Positions 2,691 to 53,032 of a stretch of DNA of 64,000 nt are shown here, one piece after another. The DNA is from Aggregatilineales bacterium. GTDB taxonomy: Bacteria; Chloroflexota; Anaerolineae; Aggregatilineales; J027. Position 1 is the stretch's first letter; each line of letters starts with the position of its first letter. Under the pieces are notes generated by a model. The model worked only from the letters and a program-made list of their open reading frames with translations, did no database searches and was not told where the DNA came from. Both the position numbers and the translations under genes were made by a program. The DNA is taken from the NCBI GenBank assembly GCA_965215855.1, contig CBDCER010000001.1, positions 17,531-81,530 on the forward strand, written 5' to 3'.

Positions 2691-3035
2691 CGAAATCTAT
2701 TCGCAAAATTTCGATAGATGATACCAGACATGGCGGGGATGGGCGATGGTTTGGGTGGGGGAATGGGGCCGGGCACGACGGGAGCGAATCCAGGCCGTGC
2801 CCCAGCTTCTGTATATGCCCGACGCCACCAGTTGGCCCCATACCGGTGTGCGAAAAATCGCCTGCGTGCGGACGAGACTACCCTGCGCCTTCTCAATTTC
2901 TTCGCCGCAACCTGCAAACCGTAGTCGGCAGGCACTATTGGAAGCGGTTGTCCTATGGTGGGGAGCCGCTCGCAACCGGAGCCGCATCTTCGTGATAACG
3001 GTTATCCGGCGCCCTGTGAAGAGAGACTGAGGAGT

Positions 3036-3119
3036 GAGACGCACGCCCACCGCCACCCGCAGGCCGTTGTTGTCGTTCCTGTTGTTCGGGTTGTTGTTGC
3101 GCGAGGACGCACCCGCGTC
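3036..3119 (-). repeat. DGR template repeat (TR), non-coding
   Basis: Coding-sense sequence is ..GAC GCG GGT GCG TCC TCG CGC AAC AAC AAC CCG AAC AAC AGG AAC GAC AAC AAC GGC CTG CGG GTG GCG GTG GGC GTG CGT CTC. It has 19 A, 16 of which differ from the VR copy 231 nt away. All 65 non-A positions are identical. Confidence 0.9.
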
Positions 3120-3163
3120 CATAGCCAGGGAGCCTCATGACGCCTTGCGACGCCACGTCCATC

Positions 3164-3169
3164 ATTATA
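3164..3169 (-). promoter_or_regulatory. candidate -10 box (TATAAT) about 45 nt upstream of the TR
   Basis: Perfect TATAAT on the minus strand between the target-gene stop and the TR. No convincing -35, so this is weak. Confidence 0.25.
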
Positions 3170-3190
3170 CCCCATTTCCAAATTTGCGCG

Positions 3191-3228
3191 ATTCGCGCCT
3201 GCGGCGCGGCAGGGGGAAGTGTCCCCCT
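3191..3228 (-). promoter_or_regulatory. two GC-rich hairpins just downstream of the VR and stop codon (DGR target-site hairpin candidate and/or terminator)
   Basis: AGGGGGA-AGTG-TCCCCCT (3211-3228; 7-bp stem, 4-nt loop) and CGCGCC-TGC-GGCGCG (3194-3208). No clear U-tract follows. Confidence 0.5.
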
Positions 3229-3254
3229 ACAACCCCCTCACAGAGGACAGAGCG

Positions 3255-6140
3255 TCATTGAGAAGGGAGACGCACGCCCACCGCCACCCGCAGGCCGCCG
3301 TAGCCGGCCCCGAGGCGCGGGTTGAAGGAGCGCGAGGACGCACCCGCGCCACGGCTGTGGTACGCCCCGCCCATCAATCGCTTATAATTCGTTGATACAA
3401 AATCAATTTTCAAATCACCGCTGTCATTCAAACACCACTCCCAGACATTCCCGGCCATGTCCAACGCGCCGCAATCCGCCGCGCCGTGTGGAAAGACGCC
3501 GACCGCACTCGTCCGCCCAATACCACCTTCGCTTCCATTGACGCGCCGCGCATCAAACTTCGGCCCCCAGGGGTATCCCTGGGCTGGGTTGCCACCCGTC
3601 GCGGCGTGTATCCATTCCCACTCCGCCGGTAAGCGCACCTCGACATTACCCCCGATGACCAGCGGCGGTTGTTGCTCATCTTCAGGATGCGGCAAGGTTT
3701 CGCCCCGCAAACGAGCCGTCAACCAGCGCGTGAAGGCCACGGCCTGATACCACGACACGTTATCACGGGGATAGTTGTCGTATTTTTGGCGCTGGTTTGC
3801 CATCGACTGTTTGTGGTATTCCTCGGTCAACTCGGCCCACCATTCATCGCGCCCGAAGCCATCCTCGGCCCCCAAAAACGCCTCAAATTGGGAATAGGTG
3901 ACCAGATAGCGGGCGATGTAGAACGGCGCGACGGTGAAGGTTTGCCCTTTGATCTCGATCTGTCCGCCTGGCACCGGACACCAGTCGATTTCGGGCGTGC
4001 CATCGTCGCGGACTCCAATACCGAAACGGTCATCGCCCAGGTTGTGCAATGTCTCGCCAATCACGCTACGGCGGGCGGGGGATGTGTTGATGTCATGCAG
4101 TTCGCGCCACAGACGTTTCTGTTCTGGCTCGGTGAAGTCTAGCATCACACGGGCTTCGGTGTTGTCGGGATCGTACTCTACGCCCAGGTTGCGGCAGGCG
4201 TCCTGGAATTCGTTGATTTTGGCGGTGTTGGGCAACATGAAGTCGGGGCGGTCACGTTCATCCCACCAGCGGGCCTCGCGCTCCAGGCTGCGGATCAGGC
4301 GCAGGTCATCCTGGGTGGCCTCGATCCAGTCCGCCAGGCGTTCCCAGTTGCGTAAAATGGCCTCGTGAGCGACTTCCAGTGTCACAGCGCCGTCCTGGCG
4401 GTCGGTAATCAGGAGGCGGGCATCGGTGAAGGCGGTTACCATGTTCCGTTCGTCGGCGTCCAGGGCGTTCGGATCGATGATGGCGCGTCGCCGGGTGGCT
4501 ACGCCGCGCTCATCGACCTCGACCAGTTCATGGAAGATGGCGTGCAGCAGGGCGGTTTTGGCATCTTCAGCGCCGGATAATTTCGCAAAGACGCCCTCGG
4601 CCCGTTTGCCAATCGCGCCCGCCACGCGGCCAATGGCTTCGTAGTCGGCGAAGGTGATTTGCAGAGATTCCGGGGCGGACGAGGCATGCCTCGCCCCTAC
4701 GCGGCGGGATTCGGCGATTTTGTATAGCTCGTCCAGGGCATAGGCCATCAGTGCCAGTGCGCCGCGATCATGGCCCATGTCATCCAAGATCTGGGATACC
4801 AGTCCGTCTTCGAAGTCCAGGGCGGCGCGTTCGGCAGGGCGGACGATCATTTCGTGCAAAGCGGATAGGGTCGGGGCGGCCAGCGGGAATGTTCCGCGTT
4901 GTAGCAGGTCGGCCAGGGTGGGCAGAGCCAGGCAGCGATGGTAGAAATCGGCGCGGAGGGTGATGACGGCGCGTAAACGGTGGCTGGTGTTGATGGCGAC
5001 GAGCAGGGCGGCGAAGGATTCTAGGTAGGCAGGTTGGTTGAGGGTGAACAATTCCTCAAACTGGTCGATGAACAGCAATAGCTCGGCGTCTGGTGGGTGG
5101 GCAGTCAACGCCGCTGCGCCCCAGTTCAGGATGCTGGCTGGATCTTCGTGCAAGGTAGTCGCCAGTTGGCGGGGCACTTCGCCAACCAACGGCCCGAACC
5201 GTGCCGCTAATGCTGCAAAGGGGTTATCGCCGATTTCGCCGGGCGTAAAACGCAGGTAGACCCACTGCCGCAGGTCGTTGTTCCAGGCGGGGAGCAGCCA
5301 GCCACTGCTATCTGGCAGCGCATCATCCCCCAAACGCGGCAATAATCCGGCCCCCACAAGTGATGATTTACCGGAACCACTGGCCCCAATCACCGCCACA
5401 AATCGCGCCTCGCGCAGGCGTTGCACCAGCCGGTCGGTTTCGCGTCCGCGCCCGAAATAAATGGCGGTTTGCTGATCATTGAAGGGTTTCAGGCCGGGGA
5501 AGGGTGATCCCTGCCAGAGCTGGGGCGGGGCACCGGGTGGTTTCTCGGTGGTGGTGGTGGTGGCGTCGGGGTGCTTCCGCAGATAGCGGAGGTGGCTTTC
5601 CAGTTGTTGGGTGAACAATTCGCGGAAATCTTCGGGTTCCTCATAGCGGTTTTCAAAAACCGGGTCGCCGTCGGGTGTTTTGAAGTCGGCAAAGAAGGTC
5701 TCGACTTTTTGCCATTGGGCCAGGCGTTGTGGGGCGTCGGGTTGGCGCACATCAATTTGGGGGTCAGCCGTTCGCCGATAAACCCACGTCTCCACACCCG
5801 CTGCCAGTGCATCGCTCAACTCGTAGTGTGTGCCCGAATTATACGGCTCACCATCCATCGTCACTTCCGACCCCATCCGCGACCAGAATATCACGATGAC
5901 CAAATCACATTCGGAAGGCTTAATCAAATAACGATCCACCGATTTTTGGGCGTTGACGTTGGCAGGCATCGGCAGCGTCACCCTCGGATCATCCCAACGC
6001 AGCGGCTCCAGCGTGAATTCACCTTTGAATTCATCCTGGAAGTTCATGTCTTCGATGACTTTCGCTGCGATGCCGCGTTCCTCGGAGACATCGCCGGGAG
6101 ACGAGATGAAAATGCGGAGATGGCGGGGATCTGAGGTCAT
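3255..6140 (-). CDS. DGR target: DUF4062-like N-terminal domain + P-loop STAND NTPase + C-terminal FGE-sulfatase/C-type-lectin-fold domain
   Basis: RIFISSPGDVSEERG (DUF4062-like). FPGLKPF..IYFGRGRETDRLVQRL..FVAVIGASGSGKSSLVGAGLLPRL (Walker A) and LLLFIDQFEELF (Walker B). C-terminal YLVTYSQFEAF, NVSWYQAVAFTRWL, GNVWEWC, GGAYHS..GLRVAVG (FGE fold). Start placed at ATG 6140 (AAGGA 7 nt upstream); the ORF track extends to 6218. Confidence 0.85.
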   Translation of the reverse strand: MTSDPRHLRIFISSPGDVSEERGIAAKVIEDMNFQDEFKGEFTLEPLRWDDPRVTLPMPANVNAQKSVDRYLIKPSECDLVIVIFWSRMGSEVTMDGEPYNSGTHYELSDALAAGVETWVYRRTADPQIDVRQPDAPQRLAQWQKVETFFADFKTPDGDPVFENRYEEPEDFRELFTQQLESHLRYLRKHPDATTTTTEKPPGAPPQLWQGSPFPGLKPFNDQQTAIYFGRGRETDRLVQRLREARFVAVIGASGSGKSSLVGAGLLPRLGDDALPDSSGWLLPAWNNDLRQWVYLRFTPGEIGDNPFAALAARFGPLVGEVPRQLATTLHEDPASILNWGAAALTAHPPDAELLLFIDQFEELFTLNQPAYLESFAALLVAINTSHRLRAVITLRADFYHRCLALPTLADLLQRGTFPLAAPTLSALHEMIVRPAERAALDFEDGLVSQILDDMGHDRGALALMAYALDELYKIAESRRVGARHASSAPESLQITFADYEAIGRVAGAIGKRAEGVFAKLSGAEDAKTALLHAIFHELVEVDERGVATRRRAIIDPNALDADERNMVTAFTDARLLITDRQDGAVTLEVAHEAILRNWERLADWIEATQDDLRLIRSLEREARWWDERDRPDFMLPNTAKINEFQDACRNLGVEYDPDNTEARVMLDFTEPEQKRLWRELHDINTSPARRSVIGETLHNLGDDRFGIGVRDDGTPEIDWCPVPGGQIEIKGQTFTVAPFYIARYLVTYSQFEAFLGAEDGFGRDEWWAELTEEYHKQSMANQRQKYDNYPRDNVSWYQAVAFTRWLTARLRGETLPHPEDEQQPPLVIGGNVEVRLPAEWEWIHAATGGNPAQGYPWGPKFDARRVNGSEGGIGRTSAVGVFPHGAADCGALDMAGNVWEWCLNDSGDLKIDFVSTNYKRLMGGAYHSRGAGASSRSFNPRLGAGYGGLRVAVGVRLPSQ
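3267..3350 (-). repeat. DGR variable repeat (VR) inside the 3' end of the STAND/FGE gene
   Basis: Coding sense is ..GGC GCG GGT GCG TCC TCG CGC TCC TTC AAC CCG CGC CTC GGG GCC GGC TAC GGC GGC CTG CGG GTG GCG GTG GGC GTG CGT CTC. It differs from the TR only where the TR has A. Confidence 0.9.
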
Positions 6141-6298
6141 AGGTCGGTCCTTGTGTATCAACATGGTTTCATAGGGCAGTATTTTGATAAGCATAGCGTC
6201 CCTTGCACTACTTGCCAACCTTCACGGGATGGGCGATGCAATTCGTGGCGCGTGTGTTAAAATCGGGGTGATTATTGGGGTGCGATTGAGGACAGTGC

Positions 6299-8881
6299 AT
6301 GAGCCAGCAGATCATTGCCAACCGCTATGAAATCAACGAACTGATTGGCCGGGGAGGGATGGGCAACGTCTATCGGGGCCGCGATACCCAGACGGGCGAT
6401 TCGGTTGCTATCAAACACCTGAAAAGCCATGTCATTGAAGAAAATCCGGAGCTGATCGAACGTTTCAACCGCGAGGGCAAACTTCTCCGCAAGCTGGATC
6501 ATCCCAATATTGTTACTGTGCTGGCAACCATTGAGGAAGACGATAACCATTACATCGTCATGGAACATATCGGTGGCGGGTCGCTGCGCGATATTATGGA
6601 GCAGGACAGCCCTTTGCCCGTGCGGCACGTTCTGGAAATTGGGCTGGATATTGCCGACGCGCTGACGCGTACCCATCGCTTGAACATTATCCACCGCGAC
6701 ATCAAACCGTCGAATGTCTTGATGGCTGAAGATGGGACGCCGCGCCTGACCGATTTCGGTATTGCGCGGGGCGGTGGCGATGGGAAAACTCAACTGACCA
6801 GTACGGGGGCCGTGCTGGGGACTTATGCTTATCTCAGCCCTGAAGCCTGCATGGGGGAAGAACTGGACGCCCGGGCTGACATCTGGGCGTTTGGCGTCAT
6901 GCTATATGAAATGCTGACGGGGCAGCGCCCGTTTGAATATGGGCACGAAGCCGCGACTCTGATCGCTATTTTGCAGGAGGAGACGCCGGATGTGCGCCAG
7001 GCGCGTCCGGATATGCCGGAAGAACTTGCCATTTTGATCGACCATGCTCTCATTAAAGAGCGCGACCAGCGCATTCCCAGTATCCGTCGCGTTGGTGCTG
7101 AGTTGGAAGCGATTTTGTTCTCACTGGATAAACGTAGTAGTGATGGGTCGCGGTTTGCTACCCCCTCCACGTCATCGGCTATGCCAATCTCTGCTTCGCG
7201 CCTGACCCGCTCCCCGACGGATACTGCTGGGGAAGAAAACACCGTACTCATGACTGAAACCGGCTTTGGCAAACGTACATCGCGGTGGCAACGGTTTCTG
7301 GCTGTGGACATTTTTGTTGCATTTGCTATTCTGGTTGTTGCCGTGCTGCTGTTCGCCACTGGTATATTGAGCGGCGATGATGATGCGGAGCAACAACCCA
7401 CAGCGGTCGCCGTTGTCGCTCCCCAGGATTCCGACCACTATATTGTCCTCGTTGCGCAAATGGAACCTCTGACGTCCAATGAACGTGATGTCAGCCGATT
7501 CATTGTCGATAATTTGCAGCAAAAACTGGAGCGCGAAATCACGTTCTCGAACATTCGGGTTTTTGCCTATCCGGGGATTATACGTAGCGAGGCCGAGGCA
7601 CAGATTATTGCTGAAGCCAACAATGCCGTTGTTGTCGTTTGGGGCAACTATACCACTGACGTCATTGAGCTGGAGATTCAATTGGGCGCGACCGCTGTAT
7701 TCGCCGATATACCCATCTCGCGCACTCGGATTCAAGAAGCGACCAACGTGCGCGTTCATATGGAGAATGAACGGTTGGAGTCTATTGCGCCGCAGGTGTT
7801 GGGCGTCATTGCCGTTTTGCAAAATGCCAGTGGCGATGGCTATGAACTGAGCCGCACGGTGGCGATATTGGCTGAACTGGATGTGGTTGATGCTGAGATT
7901 TTTGGCAACAGCGTCGCGGCCCATACCCACCGCTTTTTCCGGTCTTTCTTGATTGATTCGGATGTGGCACTCCAGGAAATCCGCGCTGCTCAGGTACTGG
8001 CGGCTGGCAACCCCATTCTCTATACTGCCGCCGCCAGCGCCTATATGCGTTTCGGCCAGTTGCAGAGCGCCCGCACTGATATTGAGATCGCGTTACGCCT
8101 CGAAACGTCTGATGAATGGGCGATGCCGCTCTATTTGCAGGCCAATGATGCCTTAATAACCAACGATATTGATGCTGCTATTGAAATATATAGCGACATC
8201 ATCATGCTGCGCCCCGATGATTGGTTTCCGCATAATTTCCGGGGCGCGTTGTATTATCTGAAAGCAGATTATCGACAGGCCAGCGTTGATCTCGATACTT
8301 CGCTGAGGCTGGAACCCAACGCCAATTTCCCTTACCTGTTTTCGGTATCCATTGCGTTGCGGGAAGGGCGCATTGCCGACGCTCAACAATTGATGCGGGA
8401 GGTACTCGCTCGCTTTCCTGATCCCTCGTTAGGCAATCGGACCATCACCGCGACCTATGGCGACCAGTTTCCGATCCCCTTTGGCCCGCTGTTCTCAGCT
8501 TTTGGTAATTTGCTGTTGGGGCGCTATGAGGACGTGATTACCGATGCTGAACAGGGTCTAGTGATGGACAGCCAAATACCTGAAATTTATATGTTGCAGG
8601 GATTGGCCCATTGTAATCTGGATGATGATGAATCGGCTGTAGACGCCTATACAGCAGCTATTGAACTGGCTCCGGATTTCTATACGCTTTATTTGTTGCG
8701 CGGTGATGCCCGTTTTCGCGCGGATGATGTTGATGGATCGAATCAGGACGCTGCGACTGCCACTGACCCAGATAATGGCCTGGATAACGCTTTGATGCCG
8801 TATTTATTAGCAGGTGTGCGCGGCGAATTGACCTGCAAGAATTTCTTCAGCTATGAGTTGCCGGAAGAAGATAATGACTGA
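6299..8881 (+). CDS. Ser/Thr protein kinase - single TM - extracytoplasmic domain - TPR repeats
   Basis: GRGGMGNVYRG, AIK, HRDIKPSN, DFG, SPE (Hanks motifs). TM segment FLAVDIFVAFAILVVAVLLFATGIL. TPR-like C-terminal half. Confidence 0.9.
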   Translation: MSQQIIANRYEINELIGRGGMGNVYRGRDTQTGDSVAIKHLKSHVIEENPELIERFNREGKLLRKLDHPNIVTVLATIEEDDNHYIVMEHIGGGSLRDIMEQDSPLPVRHVLEIGLDIADALTRTHRLNIIHRDIKPSNVLMAEDGTPRLTDFGIARGGGDGKTQLTSTGAVLGTYAYLSPEACMGEELDARADIWAFGVMLYEMLTGQRPFEYGHEAATLIAILQEETPDVRQARPDMPEELAILIDHALIKERDQRIPSIRRVGAELEAILFSLDKRSSDGSRFATPSTSSAMPISASRLTRSPTDTAGEENTVLMTETGFGKRTSRWQRFLAVDIFVAFAILVVAVLLFATGILSGDDDAEQQPTAVAVVAPQDSDHYIVLVAQMEPLTSNERDVSRFIVDNLQQKLEREITFSNIRVFAYPGIIRSEAEAQIIAEANNAVVVVWGNYTTDVIELEIQLGATAVFADIPISRTRIQEATNVRVHMENERLESIAPQVLGVIAVLQNASGDGYELSRTVAILAELDVVDAEIFGNSVAAHTHRFFRSFLIDSDVALQEIRAAQVLAAGNPILYTAAASAYMRFGQLQSARTDIEIALRLETSDEWAMPLYLQANDALITNDIDAAIEIYSDIIMLRPDDWFPHNFRGALYYLKADYRQASVDLDTSLRLEPNANFPYLFSVSIALREGRIADAQQLMREVLARFPDPSLGNRTITATYGDQFPIPFGPLFSAFGNLLLGRYEDVITDAEQGLVMDSQIPEIYMLQGLAHCNLDDDESAVDAYTAAIELAPDFYTLYLLRGDARFRADDVDGSNQDAATATDPDNGLDNALMPYLLAGVRGELTCKNFFSYELPEEDND

Positions 8882-11492
8882 GCAAGCGAGACCGATACTC
8901 GCTGACCGTTTTGAAGTGGGTGACCGTTTGGGGCGGGGCGGCATGGGGGATGTCTTTTTAGGCCGCGATTTGCAGACCGGTGATCAGGTTGCCGTCAAAT
9001 TGCTGAAACCGGAAATTGTGGAGCATGATCCTGACCTCGTGAAACGCTTTGACCGCGAGGGCGAGATGCTTCGTAAACTGAACCATCCGAACATCGTTAC
9101 GATTCTGGCAACTTTGCAGGAAGATGGTAAACACTACATTGTCATGGAATATGTTGGCGGCGGTTCTTTGCAGGATTTACTTCAGCAGCAGCCCCAACTG
9201 CCAGTGCAGCGCGTCCTCGAAATCGCTCTCGATATTGCTGACGCACTGACGCGTGCCCATCGCCTAAACATCATTCACCGCGACATCAAACCCGCCAATG
9301 TGCTGATTGATGAGGAAGGGCTGCCGCGCCTGACCGATTTCGGCGTCGCCCATATGGGAGATCGTACCCGCCTGACGGAAACAGGTTCTCTCATTGGGAC
9401 TTATGCTTATCTCAGCCCAGAAGCCTGTCAGGGGGTTGATCTGGATGAGCGTGCTGACATTTGGGCATTTGGTGTGATGCTCTATGAAATGTTGGCCGGA
9501 CAGCGCCCGTTTGTGTCAGATAAGGTCGGCACGTTGCTGGTGCAGATTATGAATCAACCTGTCCCATCCTTGATCGAGTACCGGCCTGATGTTCCCATAG
9601 AATTGGCCGAACTGGTTCATTGGATGCTGGAAAGGGAACGCGAGGATCGCGCCCCGACCGTGCGAGTGGTCGGCGCTCAACTGGAAGGCTTGATGCGCGG
9701 CATTGATACTACGCCCCAGACAGGCCGTGCATCTGTGCAAAAAGTTGATGCGGAAGCCAAATCGCGCTTTGCTACACCAACGCCTTCCAGTGGTGGCCCG
9801 GTGGCGGAAGGCGACACCGCTATTACCCCACCGGAGTCAATCAGGGTTGAATTGCCGGCAAGCTCTAATGTGATTGGGGTTGGACAATCACATTGGCTGA
9901 AGTGGGTTACGGTGATTATTGGCATCCTGGCGGTTGCAGCGGTCGTCATCGCCGGCATGTTTTATGGGGGAAGGCGCGATGATGAAGGCGATACTTCGCG
10001 TCGATCTGTCGATCAAATTGCCAATTATGTCGGTGAAGCTGTTCCCGACGATGAATTTCTGATTTTGGTGGCCCATCTGGAACCTATCAACACAGATGAG
10101 CGCGAGGTTGCCCGCTTCATCATTGACGATTTGAGCCAATATCTTGAAGTCAGCATTCCTGATTCCACCATGCACGTTCGGGAATATCCGGATATTGTTA
10201 TCTCGTCGGAGCGGGCCAGCCGGGCTGCTGCTGCGAATAAAGCTGCTGTGATTGTTTGGGGAAGCTACACTGATACGTTTATTCAACTGGATGTCCAGAT
10301 TGGCTCACTCCATGCGTTTCCATATAACGATTTCCCCCGCGAAGATGTGGAGCGCGTTACCAATCTTCGGGTGCGGATGACGGATGTTTTTGAGGAGTCG
10401 GTCACGCCAGTGGTGTTGAATGCTCTCAATACGTTGTATGCCGCCAACGGCGACGCTTTTGACGTGCTGCGAATCGGCGTGATCGCCAGCCATATGAATC
10501 TTGTGCCAGCCCAGCCGGTTGGTGACAGCCTGGCGGCTTACAGCTATCGGGCCAGCATCGCGCCTTATCTATTCGAGACTCAGGCCGATAGTGATGTGTA
10601 TGCTGAAGAACAACTGGCCGCAGCCCTCACCATCGAGCAGCACCCACTCATCTATACACAGCGCAGTATGTGGTATGTTACACAAGGGCGTTTTGATGAA
10701 TCACGGGAAGACGCCCAAACTGCCATCCTGCGTGGCCCCGATGACTGGGTCATTCCTATGTACGTCATTACAACGGGTTCTGACTTTCAAGAAACGATTG
10801 ATTTGTTTTCCACCATTGTCGAACTTCGCCCCGAAGACTGGTATGCAGCTTACCAACTCGGCGCTCTTTACTATTCTGTGGGAGTGACCGAGCTTGCCAT
10901 CGCTTACTTAGATCAGGCCGTTGCTTTAGAAGCCGAAGCTAGTTTCCCGTATCTTGTCCGGGGAATTATGGCCCTCCACGATGGGCAACTGGCCCTTGCT
11001 GCTCAACTCATGCAAGTTGTCGTAGACAAATTTCCTGATCCATCCTACAGTCGCCGTCTGATGCAGGCGTCTTTTGGTGATCAGGAAGGGTTCTATGTGT
11101 GGGATGCCTATTTGAATGCGGCTACTAGCTTGGCTTTGAGTCAACATAACGATGTGCTGGCAGCTCTGGAGAACATCGTCCTCGAAGTCCCCCTGTCCGA
11201 TTTCAGCCTGTTACAAGGTCTGGCTTATTGCAATCTGGGTGAGTATGCTGCTGCGGAGGAAGCTTATAGCCGTGCCTTGCAGCTTGATCCCGATTTCAGA
11301 ATGCTCTATCTATTTCGGGCCGAAGTCAGCACTCATCAGGAGGATACCGACGGCGCTGTAGCCGATTTTGCACTGGCCCGCCAACATGGCTACGGACCGG
11401 AATTCGATACCGTCATTGCTGCTTATGAAGCGGGTAATCTGACCTGCGAAAACCTCTTCATCTATTCGTCGCAAGCTGCTACCATCGACTGA
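8874..11492 (+). CDS. Ser/Thr protein kinase - TM - TPR, tandem paralog of the upstream gene
   Basis: Same architecture and collinear similarity to 6299-8881, including the C-terminal LTC(K/E)N(F/L)F. ATG 8874 overlaps the upstream stop (ATGACTGA). The ORF track starts at 8853. Confidence 0.9.
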   Translation: MTEQARPILADRFEVGDRLGRGGMGDVFLGRDLQTGDQVAVKLLKPEIVEHDPDLVKRFDREGEMLRKLNHPNIVTILATLQEDGKHYIVMEYVGGGSLQDLLQQQPQLPVQRVLEIALDIADALTRAHRLNIIHRDIKPANVLIDEEGLPRLTDFGVAHMGDRTRLTETGSLIGTYAYLSPEACQGVDLDERADIWAFGVMLYEMLAGQRPFVSDKVGTLLVQIMNQPVPSLIEYRPDVPIELAELVHWMLEREREDRAPTVRVVGAQLEGLMRGIDTTPQTGRASVQKVDAEAKSRFATPTPSSGGPVAEGDTAITPPESIRVELPASSNVIGVGQSHWLKWVTVIIGILAVAAVVIAGMFYGGRRDDEGDTSRRSVDQIANYVGEAVPDDEFLILVAHLEPINTDEREVARFIIDDLSQYLEVSIPDSTMHVREYPDIVISSERASRAAAANKAAVIVWGSYTDTFIQLDVQIGSLHAFPYNDFPREDVERVTNLRVRMTDVFEESVTPVVLNALNTLYAANGDAFDVLRIGVIASHMNLVPAQPVGDSLAAYSYRASIAPYLFETQADSDVYAEEQLAAALTIEQHPLIYTQRSMWYVTQGRFDESREDAQTAILRGPDDWVIPMYVITTGSDFQETIDLFSTIVELRPEDWYAAYQLGALYYSVGVTELAIAYLDQAVALEAEASFPYLVRGIMALHDGQLALAAQLMQVVVDKFPDPSYSRRLMQASFGDQEGFYVWDAYLNAATSLALSQHNDVLAALENIVLEVPLSDFSLLQGLAYCNLGEYAAAEEAYSRALQLDPDFRMLYLFRAEVSTHQEDTDGAVADFALARQHGYGPEFDTVIAAYEAGNLTCENLFIYSSQAATID

Positions 11493-13556: not shown

Positions 13557-13633
13557 CATTAGATTCGGGTGAAGTGAATACACAAAGCCCCCCTATACCG
13601 TTGAGATAAGGATTATGAGGCGGGTTTTTGTTG

Positions 13634-13710
13634 CATTGGGCTAGAACCCCAACGCTCAATGAAAAGGGCATCATGGCCGCATTTTTCACTGAGCGTGAGG
13701 GTTCAAGCCC
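13634..13710 (+). repeat. hairpin repeat, family 1, copy A (more diverged at its 3' arm)
   Basis: TTGGGCTAGAACCCCAACGCTCAATGAAAAGG...TTTTTCACTGAGCG.. matches the copies at 37096-37170 and 45699-45772. Confidence 0.65.
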
Positions 13711-14855: not shown

Positions 14856-15021
14856 TCAAGCAACCTCCTCCTGATAACATCGCTGTGCCTATTATCCGCC
14901 AAGCGCGAATCTGACACAAAAACAGGCATTCATCATACCTCACCAACATCCTCACATTTTCTACACAACCTTGCCGGACAATGACGCTATACAACCATTC
15001 ATCTACTGGAGTGTCTAAATA

Positions 15022-16386: not shown

Positions 16387-17421
16387 TCATGGGCTAAATT
16401 CTTCAATCACCAGATTGTCGCTATCGAAACTCACTACCGACACTTGCTCGACCCGTACTCCAATCCGGTTCTCGATCAATAAATCCGTCAGTTGATCACC
16501 GTCAATCAAAATCACTGGAATCGTATTCGGCAACCGTGCTACCTCCAGCGCTCCTTTACTGAAACTGCTGGTCGTGATAATCATGCCCTGGTCAATATCC
16601 TCCATCGCCAGCATATCGCCGCGAAACTGGCTGACCACCGGACGCCCGACATTGGCTTGCACACGCTTGACTTGAATGGCGGTATGCACCTGCATGATGC
16701 CGACCGCGACATCGGCTACCACGTCCACGCCACCATCGACTGCCCGGCGCGTCACCATGATATTGTTGTAGCCGATTTTCCCTAATAAGCGCCCAACTAG
16801 GTTCTCAAACGCAAAGGGATCCATGTGGTTGACTACATTCAACAACTGTTGCTTGACCATCTCGCGTTGTTGTTGGGCCATCTGGGTGATGGTATCGACC
16901 TCGTGTTCCCATTCTGCTAGTCCGAAAATACCCGGTCCATCGCGCCGGAACAGTGATGCCAAGCCCTTTTGTTGAATATCACGGTACAGTTGGGCGGAAA
17001 GTGATGCTTCGGGGGCCATGCTCTGGGGGTTGATTAGCTGCCATTCTACAGCCAGTTCGGCGATTTCCGTGTAGCGCATGGGGCGGCCCTCAGCTTTTAA
17101 CACCTCATAGGCCGCCTCTTTATAGGTCAAAAACTCGCCATATTGCTGGAAGATCACATGATCCAGGTAGTTGTCGGGCAGAGGGTCGTCTGCCATTCGC
17201 AACGCGTAGCGCCCGCGCTCTACACGCTTGAAGGGGGAGATGTCTTGCCCTTCGCGCTCACGCCGCAGACTGGCTGTGACCACCGCTGCCATTGTTTGAC
17301 GCGGGGTACGCCCCATCGCTTCGATCAAGCCCTGTTCCAACGCCAGGCGCGTGATCTCGGCGATTGATAATGGTCGCTCCGCTTGCCGCAATACTTCAAT
17401 CGCGGCCTGTAAAAAGGTCAT
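16387..17421 (-). CDS. Mrr-like restriction endonuclease with two N-terminal HARE-HTH-like modules
   Basis: Two copies of the ..A(A/I)(Y)EVL..(G/E)RP(M/L)..EI..LA.. helix module. C-terminal [28 protein letters not shown] (Mrr_cat-like core). Confidence 0.7.
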
Positions 17422-31881: not shown

Positions 31882-33099
31882 TAGGGCAATCGCATATGAA
31901 GTCTTTAGGGACAGACAACTTTGCGTAAATAATCATTATCCCAGCCTGCCATTTTGCGTTTGGCGGCAATGCCGACGTTAACCGAGGTTTCTTGTTTGAG
32001 CAAGTTTAGGGCTAGATGGCGAAGAACAGCCATGTTTTGTGGCCCATGATCTTTGCGAATACGCGATTCATCTTCACGAAAGGCAATGTCGAGAACCCAG
32101 TGTAAGCCATTCTCAATTTGCCAATGCTCACGAATGGCTTCCAAGAAATCTTGAGCAGCTGCTTGCCAACTGCTGATGAAATATCGGTCTGAGGTCTCAG
32201 TTTTCTGCGGCGTAACGCGGACTGTCACTAATTTGACGAGCGTGTTCAATTTTTTCCAGGCCAAACCCCGCCGTAAGTAATGACGATGTTCAGGTTCAGA
32301 GACGATCCAGACTTGCCGAAACTCCTGACGATCATGGCCGGTGCTTTCGCGCTGGGCGGTCTGATAGACGACATCTTGATAATGCTCAAACTCAAACCCC
32401 TCGAATAGCATCTGCAAGTCTTCATACAGGGTTCCCTGGTTCTTTTTCACCGCCAGAATATAGTCAGCTTGCGCCTCGACAATTTGCTCGGCAATCTCGG
32501 TTTGGGTGTTGAGCGCGTCCAATGTAACCACACAGCCCGTGATGTCCAGTTGAGCCAATAGCGCCGGGATGGCGGTGATTTCATTGGATTTGTCATTGAC
32601 CTTCTTTTGTCCCAGCACTAGCCGGTTCTCACTGACCCAGGCACTCACCATCCAAATACCTTCCCGACCCTTGCGGCGATCCTGACTCCGTCGCAGTTTC
32701 TTACCATCCACGGCCACCAGTTGTTCCTGACTACGTTTGCACAAACTGGCTGTCCATTTCACAAAACTTGCTTGGAATGCGCTTTCATCCAGCCAGCGGA
32801 AAAAGCGCCCAAAGGTGTCATGCGAGGGAATGCCCTTCTCCAAATCTAGAAAACCACCTAACCATTCTTGCTTGGCTTTTCCATAACGTTCTACATCTGT
32901 CCATCCATCAGCCCCACAGATTACCGCTAAGATAGATATCGTTACGATATTGACCAGCGGATGCGTGATATTCACTCCTGTTCGTGGGTCTTCCAGATCC
33001 GAAAAGTAGGACATGATACTGGTTTCAGAAAACATGGCAGCACCTTTTTGGCTACCATTTTCCTTCATTAAGGATTAAGATTCCATATGCGATCGCCCT
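31882..33099 (-). mobile_element. ISAs1-family insertion sequence (1218 bp)
   Basis: Imperfect terminal inverted repeats TAGGGCAATCGCATATGAAGTCTT / TAGGGCGATCGCATATGGAATCTT (about 22 of 26 match). Single transposase ORF and a flanking 10-bp direct repeat. Confidence 0.85.
31905..33068 (-). CDS. ISAs1-family (H-repeat-associated) DDE transposase
   Basis: F..L.DPR......H.L..I..I...AV.CGA.GW..........K..WL..FL.L..GIPSHDTF.R.F N-terminal signature plus a DDE_Tnp_1-like C-terminus. Confidence 0.85.
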   Translation of the reverse strand: MKENGSQKGAAMFSETSIMSYFSDLEDPRTGVNITHPLVNIVTISILAVICGADGWTDVERYGKAKQEWLGGFLDLEKGIPSHDTFGRFFRWLDESAFQASFVKWTASLCKRSQEQLVAVDGKKLRRSQDRRKGREGIWMVSAWVSENRLVLGQKKVNDKSNEITAIPALLAQLDITGCVVTLDALNTQTEIAEQIVEAQADYILAVKKNQGTLYEDLQMLFEGFEFEHYQDVVYQTAQRESTGHDRQEFRQVWIVSEPEHRHYLRRGLAWKKLNTLVKLVTVRVTPQKTETSDRYFISSWQAAAQDFLEAIREHWQIENGLHWVLDIAFREDESRIRKDHGPQNMAVLRHLALNLLKQETSVNVGIAAKRKMAGWDNDYLRKVVCP

Positions 33100-37086: not shown

Positions 37087-37095
37087 GTTTAGCCG

Positions 37096-37170
37096 TATAG
37101 GCTGAACCCTAATACCCAATGAAAAGGACTGCGCCGCCATATTATTCACTGAGCATGGTAGTTGCAGCAC
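37096..37170 (+). repeat. hairpin repeat, family 1, copy B
   Basis: GGCTGAACCCTAATACCCAATGAAAAGG...TTATTCACTGAGCATGGTAGTTGCAG. Confidence 0.7.
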
Positions 37171-39227: not shown

Positions 39228-39349
39228 CGAGTTCAGACATAGCGACAGAATAGATTTGGCTGAACCAGACTTCACGAGACCTGACCCATATCCTCACATT
39301 TTCTTCACAGCTTTGTGGGATGGTAGGTACAAAGCAATGAAGGAGGATT

Positions 39350-45691: not shown

Positions 45692-45698
45692 AGGGACG

Positions 45699-45772
45699 CG
45701 TTGGGATTGAACCCCAATGCTCAATGAAAAGGTCATCATCGCCGTGTTTTTCACTGAGCATGGTGGTTGCAG
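45699..45772 (+). repeat. hairpin repeat, family 1, copy C
   Basis: TTGGGATTGAACCCCAATGCTCAATGAAAAGG-loop-TTTTTCACTGAGCATGGTGGTTGCAG. The arms pair at about 18 of 21 positions. Confidence 0.75.
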
Positions 45773-46910: not shown

Positions 46911-48230
46911 ATGAAGAGAATGCTAGTAAATCTCATTTTGATATGTGTGTTGGTGACGGTTGCCACGGGAACGCTTTTTGCTCAGGATGGCGGGAGTGCA
47001 ACGACAGGCGCAGAACTCAATGTGCGTAGTGGGCCTGGGTTGGGTAATCCTATTGTGGCAGTGTTGCCGCAGGAAACTGTCGTTGTGACAGATGGGCGCA
47101 ATGGAGCCGGAGACTGGATACTCATTCATACGCAGGATGGTAGTGTGGGCGGCTGGGTGGCGGCGGCATATTTGCGGGGGCTTAATGCTGCGGCGTTGCC
47201 AGTGGTGGCGGGAGATGTGCAGACTCCGCCGGAGACGGGTGATGTGCCATCGGGTGACACGGCCCGGACGCGCGTGGCTCTGAATGTGCGAACTGGCCCT
47301 GGACTAGGATATGAACGTATTACGACGCTCACATTTAATGCCACGGTGATTATTGATCAGCAATCGGGTGTATGGTCGCATATCCATACGCCGGATGGTG
47401 TGATTACCGGTTGGGTGGCAACCGAATATTTGGTGATTGGGACACCTGAAACCGTTGGTGGGCCGGGGACTGGTGTGAGCCTGAGCGGTGGTGTGCTTGC
47501 TAATTCGCGTGCTATTTATGCACACGGGCAGAGTTTGGGTAACCATGCCAACGCGATTATCAGAATAGGTGATAGTAACTCGGTGGGGATGGCTTTCCTC
47601 TGTCCTTTCCAGTATGGCAATTATGATCTGGCCGGACACACTTATTTGCTGGATACCATTGCGTTTTTTAGCCAGTCGGGATCATTGTGTGTCAATGATG
47701 TGACCACGCGCAACGGGTTTTCATCGTTTAGTATGCTGGATCCGTTATCGGCAGATCCGGGGTTGTGTGCGGCGGGTGAAACGCCTTTGGATTGTGCGTT
47801 ACGGCGCAGGCGCCCCAGCGTGGCGATCATCTATTTGGGGCTGAATGATATGTCTTCACTGACTCGGACTGAGTTCAGTAGTTTTTTGAGCCAGGTAGTA
47901 TCGCAATTGTCCAATCACGGAACCATTCCGGTGTTGAATACATTCCCAATTTCTAATGAATTGGCAGCGGCAGGTTTGTATGATCCGGGATTCAATTCGA
48001 TTATTCGACAGGTTGCTGCTCAGTATCAAGTTCCGTTGCTCGATTTGCAGCAAATGGCTGCTAATTTCCCTAATCAGGGAACGGGACCGGATGGCTATCA
48101 TCTGTCGTTTGAACAGTATGACTTCATTTCATTAGCTGATCCTGCTGTGACAACCTATGGTCGTAATTTGCGGGAGCTGAGGACGCTGCAAATGTTGGAT
48201 GCAATTTTGCACAATGTTGTCAATGGCTAA
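46911..48230 (+). CDS. secreted 2xSH3b + SGNH/GDSL hydrolase-fold protein
   Basis: Signal peptide. Two LNVR(S/T)GPGLG...GW(V)...YL SH3b modules. IRIGDSNS (block I), YLGLNDM (block III), PDGYHLS (block V). Confidence 0.75.
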   Translation: MKRMLVNLILICVLVTVATGTLFAQDGGSATTGAELNVRSGPGLGNPIVAVLPQETVVVTDGRNGAGDWILIHTQDGSVGGWVAAAYLRGLNAAALPVVAGDVQTPPETGDVPSGDTARTRVALNVRTGPGLGYERITTLTFNATVIIDQQSGVWSHIHTPDGVITGWVATEYLVIGTPETVGGPGTGVSLSGGVLANSRAIYAHGQSLGNHANAIIRIGDSNSVGMAFLCPFQYGNYDLAGHTYLLDTIAFFSQSGSLCVNDVTTRNGFSSFSMLDPLSADPGLCAAGETPLDCALRRRRPSVAIIYLGLNDMSSLTRTEFSSFLSQVVSQLSNHGTIPVLNTFPISNELAAAGLYDPGFNSIIRQVAAQYQVPLLDLQQMAANFPNQGTGPDGYHLSFEQYDFISLADPAVTTYGRNLRELRTLQMLDAILHNVVNG

Positions 48231-48272
48231 TGTCGATCCCAAACATGACTCTGTTACGAATTGACGTGGTAA

Positions 48273-48368
48273 GGTGATTGTGGGGTAGGGTGGAGAGTGT
48301 GTGAGAATAAGAGACGGGGGCGCGGTCGCACCCTCCTACACCCGTTTCGCCCGTCGCCATGCGAGTTC
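48273..48368 (+). repeat. family 2 repeat, long form
   Basis: GGTGATTGTGGGGTAGGGTGGAGAGTGTGTGAG..GAGACGGGGGCGCGGTCGCACCCTCCTACACCCGTTTCGCC. Confidence 0.6.
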
Positions 48369-48591
48369 CGCATAGGAGTGTGGTACACAGCGAGCGCGGT
48401 GTACACTCAAAAGCTCATGCTTCAAACGGCTTCTCAAGGTTCGCCAACAGACAAACATGGGGAGGGTCTTCGTAGAGCGCGATTCAGGTACTCCCCTATA
48501 TTTTGGCGGAATTAAAGGAGGTTGCTTTTTGTGCTGAGATCAAGAACGCCAGACTAGAACACAGAGGTTCTGCATGGAAGGGGGATTGTGC

Positions 48592-48621
48592 TTGACGTCG
48601 TAGGTAGCCACCAGATAGCAT
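48592..48621 (+). promoter_or_regulatory. candidate promoter TTGACG-N17-ATAGCAT
   Basis: See 46832-46861. Confidence 0.35.
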
Positions 48622-48676
48622 ATTGTTAAAGTGGGAGTATGAAAATTTACAAAGGTTCTCATTTAGGATGGGTACT

Positions 48677-52937: not shown

Positions 52938-53032
52938 AAAACGCTTCCTTTGATAAACACTACGATGCAAGTCGATTGTTGCCTTCTATTGTGATGATCA
53001 TTATAGCACTAAGCCAGGGCAGCTGGAGGGAT

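Follow-up and report, generated by a model that had tools for sequence, protein, structure and literature searches.

A 961-residue protein encoded in the 64-kb stretch of DNA analysed here (hereafter the window) combines an N-terminal DUF4062 domain, a STAND NTPase of the nSTAND1 type and a C-terminal FGE-type C-type-lectin (CLec) domain, whose final codons differ from a nearby template repeat (TR) almost exclusively at the adenines of the latter. We interpret it as an intact cytoplasmic receptor comparable to NLR and Avs proteins, in which the CLec domain would act as sensor, nSTAND1 as switch and DUF4062 as an NADase effector, with the tip of the sensor rewritten by a diversity-generating retroelement (DGR); we assign this interpretation a probability of about 0.6. 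A reading of the sequence alone had already proposed such an effector-switch-sensor logic, and this proposal is supported by Pfam HMMs, AlphaFold2 models and fold searches, which bear out its DUF4062, STAND NTPase and FGE/CLec assignments. The architecture itself is not new and has been published (Kaur 2021, PMC8195603; Doré 2024, PMC10907252); that reading, too, mentioned related architectures from comparative genomics of multicellular bacteria.

The open frame spans positions 3255 to 6218 of the reverse strand, with the start placed at the ATG at 6140 according to the family consensus (MTSDPRHLRIF...). Of 234 residues with a conservation of 90% or more among 75 homologues, the protein retains 217, so the gene is intact and not decayed. 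The coordinates of the gene, its domains and the associated elements are collected in Table 1.

Table 1. Positions in the window of the receptor gene, its predicted domains and motifs, and the elements associated with its diversification
Feature	Position	Strand	Remarks
Target gene	3255..6140	(-)	961-aa DUF4062-nSTAND1-FGE/CLec protein; stop TGA 3255-3257
Predicted N-terminal effector domain, aa 1-195	5556..6140	(-)	Pfam DUF4062 core aa 9-110 = 5811-6116
F11	6108-6110	(-)	Invariant across the family
Candidate catalytic Glu, E107, in motif SGTHYE	5820-5822	(-)	>=90% conserved
nSTAND1 STAND NTPase, aa 213-632	4245..5504	(-)	Pfam E 6.3e-101
Walker A GASGSGKSS, aa 252-260	5361-5387	(-)	K258 invariant
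Walker B LLFIDQFEE, aa 355-363	5052-5078	(-)	D359-E363 invariant
FGE-type C-type-lectin-fold domain (presumed sensor), aa 733-952	3285..3944	(-)	Pfam FGE-sulfatase E 4.1e-29
Variable region (VR), aa 932-961	3259..3348	(-)	Last 30 codons; repeat of TR
10 diversifiable codons, aa 938-940 and 942-948	3297-3329	(-)	Exactly the codons with TR adenines
GC-rich hairpin, 8-bp stem, 4-nt loop (TAGGGGGACACTTCCCCCTG)	3210..3229	(-)	About 30 nt 3' of VR
TATAAT box	3164..3169	(-)	47 nt upstream of TR; candidate -10
Template repeat (TR), 90 nt	3028..3117	(-)	138 nt past the target stop codon
Conserved 3' domain of the TR RNA, folding into six predicted helices	2764..3036	(-)	About 270 nt; nhmmer E 7e-57

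The TR and the variable region (VR), of 90 nt each, show 17 mismatches, 16 of which fall at TR adenines (hypergeometric P = 3.6e-13). A core of 82 nt has 15 mismatches, each at one of its 18 adenines, and is identical at every other position, a pattern indicating that the VR has been rewritten from the TR by a retroelement. The TR contains 20 adenines and, read in the frame of the VR, eight AAC codons, and the match to it confirms both the earlier placement of the VR in the last part of the CLec domain and the earlier count of ten variable residues. The wider family appears to bear the mark of the same process: the alignment columns of the variable codons have entropies of 3.1-3.7 bits, or 2.46 in the case of aa 944, where the median for the domain is 1.64, and K, E, Q, M and W make up just 3.5% of the residues in these columns as against 24% in other variable columns, as would be left by mutagenesis of NNC codons at the very columns that vary here.

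Several elements flanking the VR and TR are reminiscent of those that direct mutagenic retrohoming in other DGRs. A G/C-rich stretch of 30 nt is identical in the TR and VR and is followed by a final 9 nt with three substitutions, of which two lie outside adenines; in this respect the G/C-rich 3' end of the VR resembles an IMH, and its TR counterpart a diverged IMH*. The hairpin beyond the VR is, by analogy, a candidate target-recognition hairpin; its sequence is identical in the related locus L001, and a conserved post-VR element is also common to both targets of another relative, L004 (family D3). The cis roles of the IMH-like end and of the hairpin are those of the BPP-1 paradigm, which we take to apply here. 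Upstream of the TR, the TATAAT box has aligned counterparts at five related loci, which read TATACT, TATAAT, TATATT and TATAGT, and it would serve as the -10 element of a separate TR transcript; a sigma-70 scan did not call it. For the structured domain at the 3' end of the TR RNA, RNAalifold predicted 48 base pairs, of which 19 show compensatory changes, and 98.2% of the cells are paired as against 85.4% in shuffled alignments (0 of 500 reach the observed value) and about 45% in slid controls. This domain is 94% identical to that of L001 and is also found with the complete DGRs of L004 and L011, and Rfam searches of the TR region and of the whole window returned nothing at the gathering score. 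It is plausible that the TR RNA is a substrate for RT-Avd, the reverse transcriptase (RT) and accessory variability determinant (Avd) of a DGR. Scans with the 34-nt constant sequence at the 3' end of the TR and VR (in IUPAC code) gave 0 matches in collections of genomes and of metagenome contigs, and hence neither population variants nor a second TR were seen.

The sequence-only reading described the sensor tip as somatically diversifiable, and of this the cis elements stand, being intact, whereas the RT and Avd genes are absent from the window. A tblastn search of the 64 kb with the RT of the clade itself gave a best E-value of 0.18 and one with the bAvd of L004 a best E-value of 0.98, none of the scanned ORFs of at least 200 aa in the window matched RVT_1, and neither a six-frame scan for the YxDD motif nor a scan of the 550-bp spacer between the TR and MalQ uncovered an RT remnant. 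Within the window, the locus comprises a TR, a VR and cis elements without RT and Avd and is not a complete DGR cassette. Since neither of the two is encoded there, present-day diversification would need a putative RT and Avd supplied in trans. Action of RT and TR in trans has been documented (Kaur 2021, PMC8195603; Doré 2024, PMC10907252). For at least eight of the best 120 homologues of the target, the contig is of the same length as that of one of the best 120 relatives of the clade's RT, a coincidence which suggests that they share contigs.

The same absence favours the principal alternative, namely that the DGR is a fossil, with RT and Avd lost and the VR frozen, leaving a STAND sensor of fixed specificity or a gene heading to decay. 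Truncated RT remnants alone accompany the relatives L002, L019, L023, L028, L044, L048 and L076, and because such remnants are common, decay is evidently frequent in the family; moreover, among 83 related targets, 56 lack both TR and RT in the locus examined (up to 10 kb on each side). The TR of 90 nt is also short beside the 120-132 nt of complete relatives, and family columns 928-931 are hypervariable and yet lie beyond its reach. Against this, all non-adenine positions of the 82-nt core still match, the 3' domain of the TR RNA is intact with its base pairs kept and close to that of L001, the post-VR hairpin is intact, and the target gene is fully conserved. In addition, RT-less loci have been seen to be diversified in trans in Thiohalocapsa (Doré 2024, PMC10907252). 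The complete DGRs of the homologous loci L004 and L011 comprise RT, bAvd, two nSTAND1-FGE targets and a TR just 3' of one target; the RT and TR of L004 do not form one unit either, as they lie about 4 kb apart on opposite strands. On balance, we consider a fossil unlikely, though it is an alternative of real weight.

Turning to the receptor itself, the central region matches 377 of the 379 positions of the nSTAND1 profile (PF20703) and scores 339 bits, where 27.1 would suffice, and nSTAND1 is present in 50 of 50 homologues. The previously reported Walker A (GASGSGKSS) and Walker B (FIDQFEELF, aa 357-365) motifs are both there, and GASGSGKSS and DQFEE are invariant among the homologues. By these criteria the NTPase is a member of the nSTAND1 clade. 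PADLOC found no match to an Avs or any other full-length defence model, its hits being restricted to PDC-S60 and the weak P-loop matches mad3 and mad8. The protein would work in the manner of an Avs and is no member of an Avs family.

The DUF4062 core of the N-terminal domain is recovered marginally by Pfam (E 1.5e-5), its 25.5 bits lying just above the cut-off of 24.7, with 39 of 50 homologues matching the same model at a best E-value of 1.3e-7, and the PADLOC model PDC-S60 matches the N-terminus of the protein with an E-value of 5e-9. Comparison of the sequence of this domain with the PDB gave noise alone. An AlphaFold2 model of the domain (pLDDT 91.3) retrieved nucleoside 2'-deoxyribosyltransferases, TIR-STING and the CMP N-glycosidase BcmB in Foldseek searches; at TM scores of 0.35-0.46 these hits agree weakly with the earlier suggestion of a TIR/nucleoside-deoxyribosyltransferase-like fold. 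The domain contains a RIFISSPGDV motif at aa 9-18, and S102, G103 and T104 ahead of the candidate catalytic glutamate are invariant in the family. F11 and E107 agree, when compared by position and motif, with F11/E87 of Eva01, E97 of KpSwz and E108 of PsAvs2, and a 2026 preprint describes an F11 aromatic motif and a catalytic glutamate in an acidic-SYT/E-Y motif for DUF4062. Three preprints of 2026 identify DUF4062 as a TIR-like NADase that hydrolyses NAD+ in anti-phage defence and also serves as an Avs effector; Avs2, Swarozyc, Vulcan, Vesta and Evangelion all use the domain as their NADase effector, and mutation of the glutamate abolishes defence. Hence, as far as the effector domain is concerned, the earlier view that neither an effector chemistry nor a phenotype had been established is outdated. 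By analogy with these proteins, the N-terminal domain is likely to degrade NAD.

Taken together, these features suggest a mechanism for the receptor. The C-terminal FGE-type CLec domain would be the sensor, and its putative ligand-binding loop of ten codons has been rewritten by mutagenic retrohoming from the TR, which allows up to about 3e10 protein variants. The TR would belong to an RNA of its own that has a likely -10 box and a structured 3' domain, while the RT-Avd would come from elsewhere in the genome. Binding of a ligand, presumably a molecule of a phage or another invader, would free the nSTAND1 NTPase to oligomerise, the oligomer would gather the N-terminal DUF4062 (NIR, TIR-like) domains and thereby switch on NAD+ hydrolysis, and the resulting depletion of NAD+ may lead to growth arrest or abortive infection.

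Two Ser/Thr kinase-TPR genes adjoin the gene divergently; these are absent from the four annotated related loci, and on this ground we rejected a functional tie between them and the target. The window has no defence island around the gene, whose neighbours are housekeeping genes. Such surroundings could also fit a receptor that is not anti-phage at all and serves kin or self/non-self recognition, or the tuning of signals, in a filamentous or multicellular bacterium, in which case NAD+ turnover would be a regulatory output or one of programmed cell death. The host is probably of the Chloroflexota/Anaerolineae type judging by its best homologues, and, as cited in Doré 2024 (PMC10907252), cyanobacterial DGR targets had earlier been proposed to function in signal transduction. 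We nevertheless regard such a role as improbable: quite apart from the lack of conservation of the kinase genes, all DUF4062 proteins tested in bacteria protect against phage (2026 preprints). The L001 locus, for its part, also carries other conflict genes, encoding DUF4062-NB-ARC-TPR and TIR-CHAT proteins.

With the AlphaFold2 model of the C-terminal domain (pLDDT 94.3, pTM 0.93), Foldseek searches retrieved ToxD (5.9e-15), EgtB, FGE and TvpA (2y3c; 3.8e-9), the last a variable protein of a DGR. In this model the residues of the VR are placed in coil, at pLDDT values of 77-89, and indirect evidence is compatible with solvent exposure of the ten variable residues; in a search with the C-terminal 101 aa, the VR aligned to no solved variable protein. 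That the domain is instead an enzyme, with an incidental likeness of TR and VR, as the names given to homologues by NCBI and JGI (in NCBI, 'SUMF1/EgtB/PvdO family nonheme iron enzyme'), the Pfam FGE-sulfatase match and the structural likeness to FGE and EgtB would have it, is barely tenable, and we rejected the nonheme iron enzyme annotation, since the scores with the NCBIfam equivalog models, of 14-48 bits, fall far short of their cut-offs of 350-500, C903 is the last cysteine of the protein, the region of FGE's C336/C341 (mutant entries 2aft and 2afy) being here a cysteine-free stretch that is the hypervariable VR itself, and the mismatches are adenine-specific (P about 4e-13).

Among the closest known systems are the STAND NTPase-FGS proteins with N-terminal TIR- or DRHyd-type effectors that are coupled to DGRs (Kaur 2021, eLife, PMC8195603; Doré 2024, PNAS, PMC10907252, with the clade 5D DGRs and Thiohalocapsa DGR 6). 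Multicellular bacteria, filamentous Chloroflexi among them, are enriched in such systems, which have been proposed to be hypermutating antigen sensors working by the logic suggested here. Like the protein described here, they join an effector or effector-associated domain to nSTAND1 and a VR-bearing FGE-type CLec domain. In DGR 6 of PB-PSB1, though, the N-terminal module is EAD8 in place of DUF4062, and the effectors listed in Kaur 2021 (PMC8195603) are TIR, DRHyd and calcineurin, with DUF4062 not named; the present locus further differs from these systems in having a TR without RT and Avd, and in the shortness of that TR (90 nt, 10 codons).

The analogy with Avs and NLR proteins drawn in the sequence-only reading proves apt, as PsAvs2 is a DUF4062-STAND-TPR protein with a DUF4062 NADase effector (bioRxiv 10.64898/2026.09.04.749371). 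Both proteins have an N-terminal DUF4062 domain, a STAND NTPase and a C-terminal sensor, with a catalytic glutamate near residue 100 (E108 in PsAvs2, the candidate E107 here), the NADase activity being predicted in the present case. The sensor of PsAvs2, in contrast, is a germline-fixed TPR array for phage terminase, as against a DGR-templated CLec loop attached to an NTPase of the nSTAND1 clade. The same preprint is silent on DGRs and lectin sensors, with 0 occurrences of 'retroelement' or 'sulfatase'. Swarozyc, Evangelion, Vulcan, Vesta and human TEP1 also have the TIR-like core of DUF4062 with the N-terminal aromatic residue (F11) and the catalytic glutamate of the acidic-SYT/E-Y motif, of which F11 and E107 are the putative counterparts here, and in this group the domain hydrolyses NAD+ upon activation; they possess other sensing and oligomerisation modules, such as helical stalks and AUX regions, and none has a STAND-CLec combination or a coupling to a DGR. 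With TvpA (2y3c), TaqVP (5vf4) and Mtd, the C-terminal domain has in common the FGE-subtype CLec fold, a VR at the extreme C-terminus and AAC-templated variable residues, which in solved DGR variable proteins are always solvent-exposed and form the binding site. Those are single-domain proteins of the cell surface or phage tail with VRs of 40-45 aa, whereas here the CLec domain is the end module of a cytoplasmic STAND protein of 961 aa and the VR has 30 aa.

With the concept already in print, the locus contributes a further example and a link to the 2026 work on DUF4062/NIR that can be tested, and no new principle; its least-described parts are the RT-less TR cassette and the covarying RNA domain. 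If our interpretation as a DGR-diversified receptor is right, it would unite innate-type NLR logic and antibody-like somatic diversification in one bacterial protein with NAD+ depletion as output. NADase activity or toxicity would then provide a simple readout for what DGR-diversified intracellular STAND sensors recognise, and the same readout would serve the question of whether such sensors confer adaptive-like immunity.

A further proposal, which we put forward tentatively and hold to be rather doubtful, is that the VR, TR and TR RNA form a portable RT-less 'diversification cassette', swapped among divergent NADase-armed STAND receptors that are served by one RT-Avd acting in trans, and including a new family of TR RNAs. 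If this is true, a single retroelement could serve many hypermutable NLR-like sensors scattered as a dispersed repertoire, and the 3' domain of the TR RNA would represent an undescribed RNA family acting as the recognition and priming module for the RT-Avd of the clade. The proposed cassette of about 620 nt (approximately 3383-2765) takes in the final 42 codons of the gene and everything beyond them up to where the structured TR RNA ends, and is 89-94% identical to that of L001, as against just 63% identity between the whole receptors. Identity to L001 is about 82% at the protein level and about 65% at third-codon positions in the FGE domain, and 41% and about 32%, respectively, in the N-terminal domain.

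The gene under study is a single uninterrupted ORF that remains open upstream of 6140 as far as a TTG at 6218, and the ATG at 6140 is the start in the family consensus (MTSDPRHLRIFISSPGDV). Pfam profiles recovered three non-overlapping domains in its product, namely DUF4062, nSTAND1 and FGE-sulfatase, bearing out the three-part effector/STAND/FGE-C-type-lectin (CLec) architecture claimed in an earlier sequence-only reading, and the motifs quoted there were located in the protein. It is a member of the nSTAND1 family and marginally one of the DUF4062 family. The protein retains 217 of the 234 positions conserved at >=90% in 75 homologues; hence the gene is, judged from its sequence, maintained rather than a relic. 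It has more than 4,000 database matches at E <= 1e-10, the best 120 of which are all full-length or almost so (at least 84% query coverage; 41-63% identity) and come mainly from Chloroflexota/Anaerolineae MAGs. In a set of 50 proteins, the window protein plus 49 of these best 120, every member has nSTAND1 and FGE, and 39 have DUF4062.

Features of the target locus, its neighbors and related loci (window positions, unless a locus or residues are named)
Feature	Position	Strand	Remarks
Target gene	3255-6140	-	961 codons
DUF4062	aa 9-110		Pfam E 1.5e-5; 25.5 bits, barely exceeding the gathering score of 24.7 bits
nSTAND1	aa 213-632		Pfam E 6.3e-101; 377/379 profile positions covered
FGE-sulfatase	aa 733-952		Pfam E 4.1e-29
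N-terminal motif	aa 9-18
Walker A	aa 252-260
Walker B	aa 357-365
Variable region (VR)	3259-3348		last 30 codons of target; 90-nt direct repeat with TR
GC hairpin, 8 bp	3210-3229		~30 nt past VR
TATAAT box upstream of TR	3164-3169	-	similar boxes align with it at five related loci
Template repeat (TR)	3028-3117		231 nt downstream of VR; 138 nt beyond target stop codon
Conserved RNA domain	2764-3036	-	~270 nt, directly 3' of TR; aligns to L001, L004, L011, L016, L019
VR/hairpin/TR/RNA-tail block	2765-3383; L001:12839-13763		89-94% nucleotide identity
Ser/Thr kinase-TPR genes	6299-8881, 8853-11492	+	two tandem paralogs; repeat families D1, D6, D8
RT-fragment loci	L002:12994-13260; L076:4052-4318		also L019, L023, L028, L044, L048

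The TR has adenine at 16 of the 17 TR/VR mismatches (hypergeometric P = 3.6e-13); within the 82-nt core no mismatch falls elsewhere, the 15 present altering 15 of its 18 adenines. The TR adenines occur in exactly ten codons (aa 938-940 and 942-948), in agreement with the ten variable residues counted previously; the TR reads AAC at eight of the ten codons, and the ten together permit ~3e10 protein variants. Across the 75 homologues the corresponding columns have entropies of 3.1-3.7 bits (2.46 at aa 944; domain median 1.64), and K/E/Q/M/W account for 3.5% of their residues versus 24% in other variable columns, a bias that marks NNC codons arising from AAC by mutagenesis of its adenines. The 3' end of the repeat has a 30-nt G/C-rich identical run followed by three substitutions within the final 9 nt, of which two are at non-adenine sites, as expected of an IMH/IMH* arrangement. 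By this sequence signature the protein is a target of a diversity-generating retroelement (DGR). The TR is ~90 nt long in the window and in L001, the locus of the nearest homolog, versus 120-132 nt in complete relatives, and family columns 928-931 (window 3349-3362) show DGR-type hypervariability, yet lie outside the window TR/VR homology. The window template therefore appears to be shortened at its 5' end, the boundary of which lies at 3117 with a 1-nt indel.

The C-terminal region (aa 671-961) was modeled with AlphaFold2 from a 76-sequence alignment (pLDDT 94.3, pTM 0.93), and Foldseek matched the model to the FGE-type CLec folds of ToxD (5.9e-15), EgtB, OvsA and FGE in the PDB, and also to the DGR variable protein TvpA (2y3c, 3.8e-9). 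In this model the ten variable residues lie in the coil that joins the last strand to the one before it, with pLDDT there down to 77-89, much as the proposal of an FGE/CLec fold with the VR in its last strand-loop had anticipated. In solved CLec-fold DGR variable proteins the binding site is always built from C-terminal variable residues exposed to solvent (PMC6328139). We rejected an FGE- or EgtB-type enzyme as a reading of this domain, as NCBIfam equivalog scores were 14-48 bits against cut-offs of 350-500 and the target has no cysteine beyond C903.

The RNA domain directly 3' of the TR is common to complete DGRs in other Chloroflexota genomes, and an nhmmer profile detected it in about a dozen fetched loci, mostly adjoining a detected TR or reverse transcriptase (RT) gene; no Rfam family corresponds to it. 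RNAalifold yielded a six-helix structure of 48 pairs, with compensatory changes at 19 of them. In the alignment 98.2% of cells were paired versus 85.4% in shuffles, none of 500 of which attained the observed value, and slid-partner controls gave ~45% paired cells and 1-5 covarying pairs versus the 19 observed. The DGR RNA of the Bordetella phage has a spacer region that serves as an analog, and by this analogy the RT-Avd of this DGR clade (Avd, accessory variability determinant) probably recognizes the domain and primes from it.

Neither RT nor Avd is encoded within the 64-kb window, which reaches just 3 kb past the TR on the malQ side. When the RT and bAvd of the complete DGR at the homologous locus L004 served as tblastn queries, the window gave nothing above noise (best E 0.18 and 0.98, respectively). 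No RT remnant lies in the 550-bp spacer from the TR to malQ, and a Pfam scan of window ORFs of at least 200 aa recovered housekeeping genes only (HutH-like lyase, MalQ, two Ser/Thr kinase-TPR proteins, LepA, MiaA, ABC transporters, FtsY, RF, MutL, SecDF and others). The TR/VR sequence had no match in genome or metagenome collections. Thus, the target locus is not a complete DGR, and its adenine-specific scars, in a window without RT or Avd, demonstrate past retrohoming alone; of the somatically diversifiable sensor tip proposed earlier, the historical part stands, but present-day diversification would need RT and Avd from outside the 64 kb.

At L004 the homolog P0029 lies within a complete DGR comprising target 1, an RT on the opposite strand, bAvd, target 2 and a TR 181 nt past target 2; the layout of L011 is identical. 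A set of 83 related targets, each followed by 600 nt or more of sequence, was examined in loci fetched up to 10 kb on each side; an adenine-biased TR was found at 11, eight of them within 1 kb of the stop codon, and a TR immediately 3' of the target stop is the norm in the clade. A TR unaccompanied by any RT match occurs at three of the 83 (the window, L001 and L016), and 56 have neither in the fetched locus. Many homologous targets elsewhere are flanked by only C-terminal RT fragments (e.g. RT residues 225-313), and RT decay beside STAND-CLec genes seems to be common. At least eight of the best 120 homologs lie on contigs equal in length to that of a best-120 relative of the clade's RT, suggesting that they share contigs. 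Service of the TR by an RT in trans is plausible, because RT and TR RNA are separate units even in the complete DGR at L004, where the RT gene lies ~4 kb from the TR RNA on the opposite strand. Diversification in trans of incomplete DGR loci has been documented (Doré et al. 2024, PMC10907252).

The nearest homolog among the matches listed, P0002 from L001 (a 612-kb ENA metagenome contig), is 63% identical overall, and its locus has different flanking genes and no RT. Identity is uneven along the gene: at the protein level it is 41% in the N-terminal domain, 67% in nSTAND1 and 82-83% in the linker and FGE domain, and at third-codon positions it climbs 5' to 3' from 0.32 to about 0.65-0.7. The last 220 nt of the gene with the spacer to the TR are 89% identical in nucleotides, many mismatches being variable sites, and the 418-nt TR-containing RNA is 94% identical. 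Either very strong constraint on the cassette or recombinational exchange more recent than the rest of the gene could account for these sequences, and the pattern is suggestive of an exchanged cassette, or of gene conversion, among divergent receptors. The L001 neighborhood contains conflict genes, a DUF4062-NB-ARC-TPR protein and a TIR-CHAT protein (L001:1424-4288 and L001:18417-21350), and the window surroundings have nothing comparable.

The N-terminal model (aa 1-200; pLDDT 91.3) has an alpha/beta fold of three layers. Nucleoside 2'-deoxyribosyltransferases (NDTs), TIR-STING and the CMP N-glycosidase BcmB are among its best PDB matches, as the TIR/NDT-like assignment proposed from sequence would predict, but they are interspersed with generic flavodoxin-like folds at low TM-scores (0.35-0.46); the model is consistent with a TIR/NDT-like fold that such matches alone are insufficient to establish. 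According to three 2026 preprints, DUF4062 proteins hydrolyze NAD+ and protect against phage. In a Pseudomonas Avs2 the domain serves as N-terminal effector (bioRxiv 10.64898/2026.09.04.749371), and it powers the Swarozyc, Vulcan, Vesta and Evangelion defenses, its activity requiring a Glu near residue 100 (E97, E98, E103, E108; E87 in Eva01) and the N-terminal aromatic residue F11 (2026 preprints). The earlier statement that no effector chemistry is established is overtaken by this published work. The target has an invariant F11, and E107 within an S-G-T-x-Y-E motif conserved at >=90%, and its effector chemistry is now testable. With the three-domain order borne out, the Avs/NLR-like effector-switch-sensor logic suggested previously is the best-supported one: a ligand would bind the variable CLec loop, the nSTAND1 NTPase would oligomerize in an NTP-dependent manner, and proximity would then activate the N-terminal DUF4062 domains. 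We infer the ligand, the oligomerization, a NADase activity and an immune role.

The sequence-only reading was right that related architectures had been noted in multicellular bacteria, and this architecture is itself already in print. Kaur et al. 2021 (PMC8195603) defined nSTAND1 and proposed such proteins as analogs of hypermutating adaptive-immunity receptors, and clade 5D DGRs of multicellular bacteria, filamentous Chloroflexi included, typically diversify nSTAND1/NACHT-CLec targets (Doré et al. 2024, PMC10907252). The target belongs to none of the PADLOC Avs families, and the preprint on the Pseudomonas Avs2 (PsAvs2), in which DUF4062 is termed NIR, makes no mention of DGRs or lectin sensors (bioRxiv 10.64898/2026.09.04.749371). 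Hence, the observation is confirmed and its interpretation supported, with novelty below that assumed; the sole conceptual addition is the joining of the DGR-STAND and DUF4062/NIR literatures. The target is a well-preserved example, and the RT-less cassette and the covarying TR-RNA domain are both poorly described.

The Ser/Thr kinase-TPR genes point away from the target, whose start is 159 bp distant; lacking conservation at related loci, they are probably unrelated to it. Apart from the target, the sole mobile-element or defense-like genes in the window are an IS4-type DDE transposase (DDE_Tnp_1; 31905-33068, -) and a HARE-HTH plus Mrr-type restriction endonuclease gene (16387-17421, -). A 71-nt intergenic repeat containing ...CAATGAAAAGG...TTTTTCACTGAGC... 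occurs in three copies of 65-85% identity (13633-13703, 37093-37163 and 45698-45768), with no Rfam match at the gathering score. Another repeat, of 50 nt and 78% identity (...CCTCACATTTTCT.CACA...), lies upstream of two unrelated genes (14929-14978 and 39271-39320) and could be a shared regulatory element. Finally, a cluster of SH3_3-domain protein paralogs, some with GDSL lipase domains, spans 46911-51354 (+) and 51351-52970 (-) and includes three tandem copies of ~72-77% nucleotide identity.
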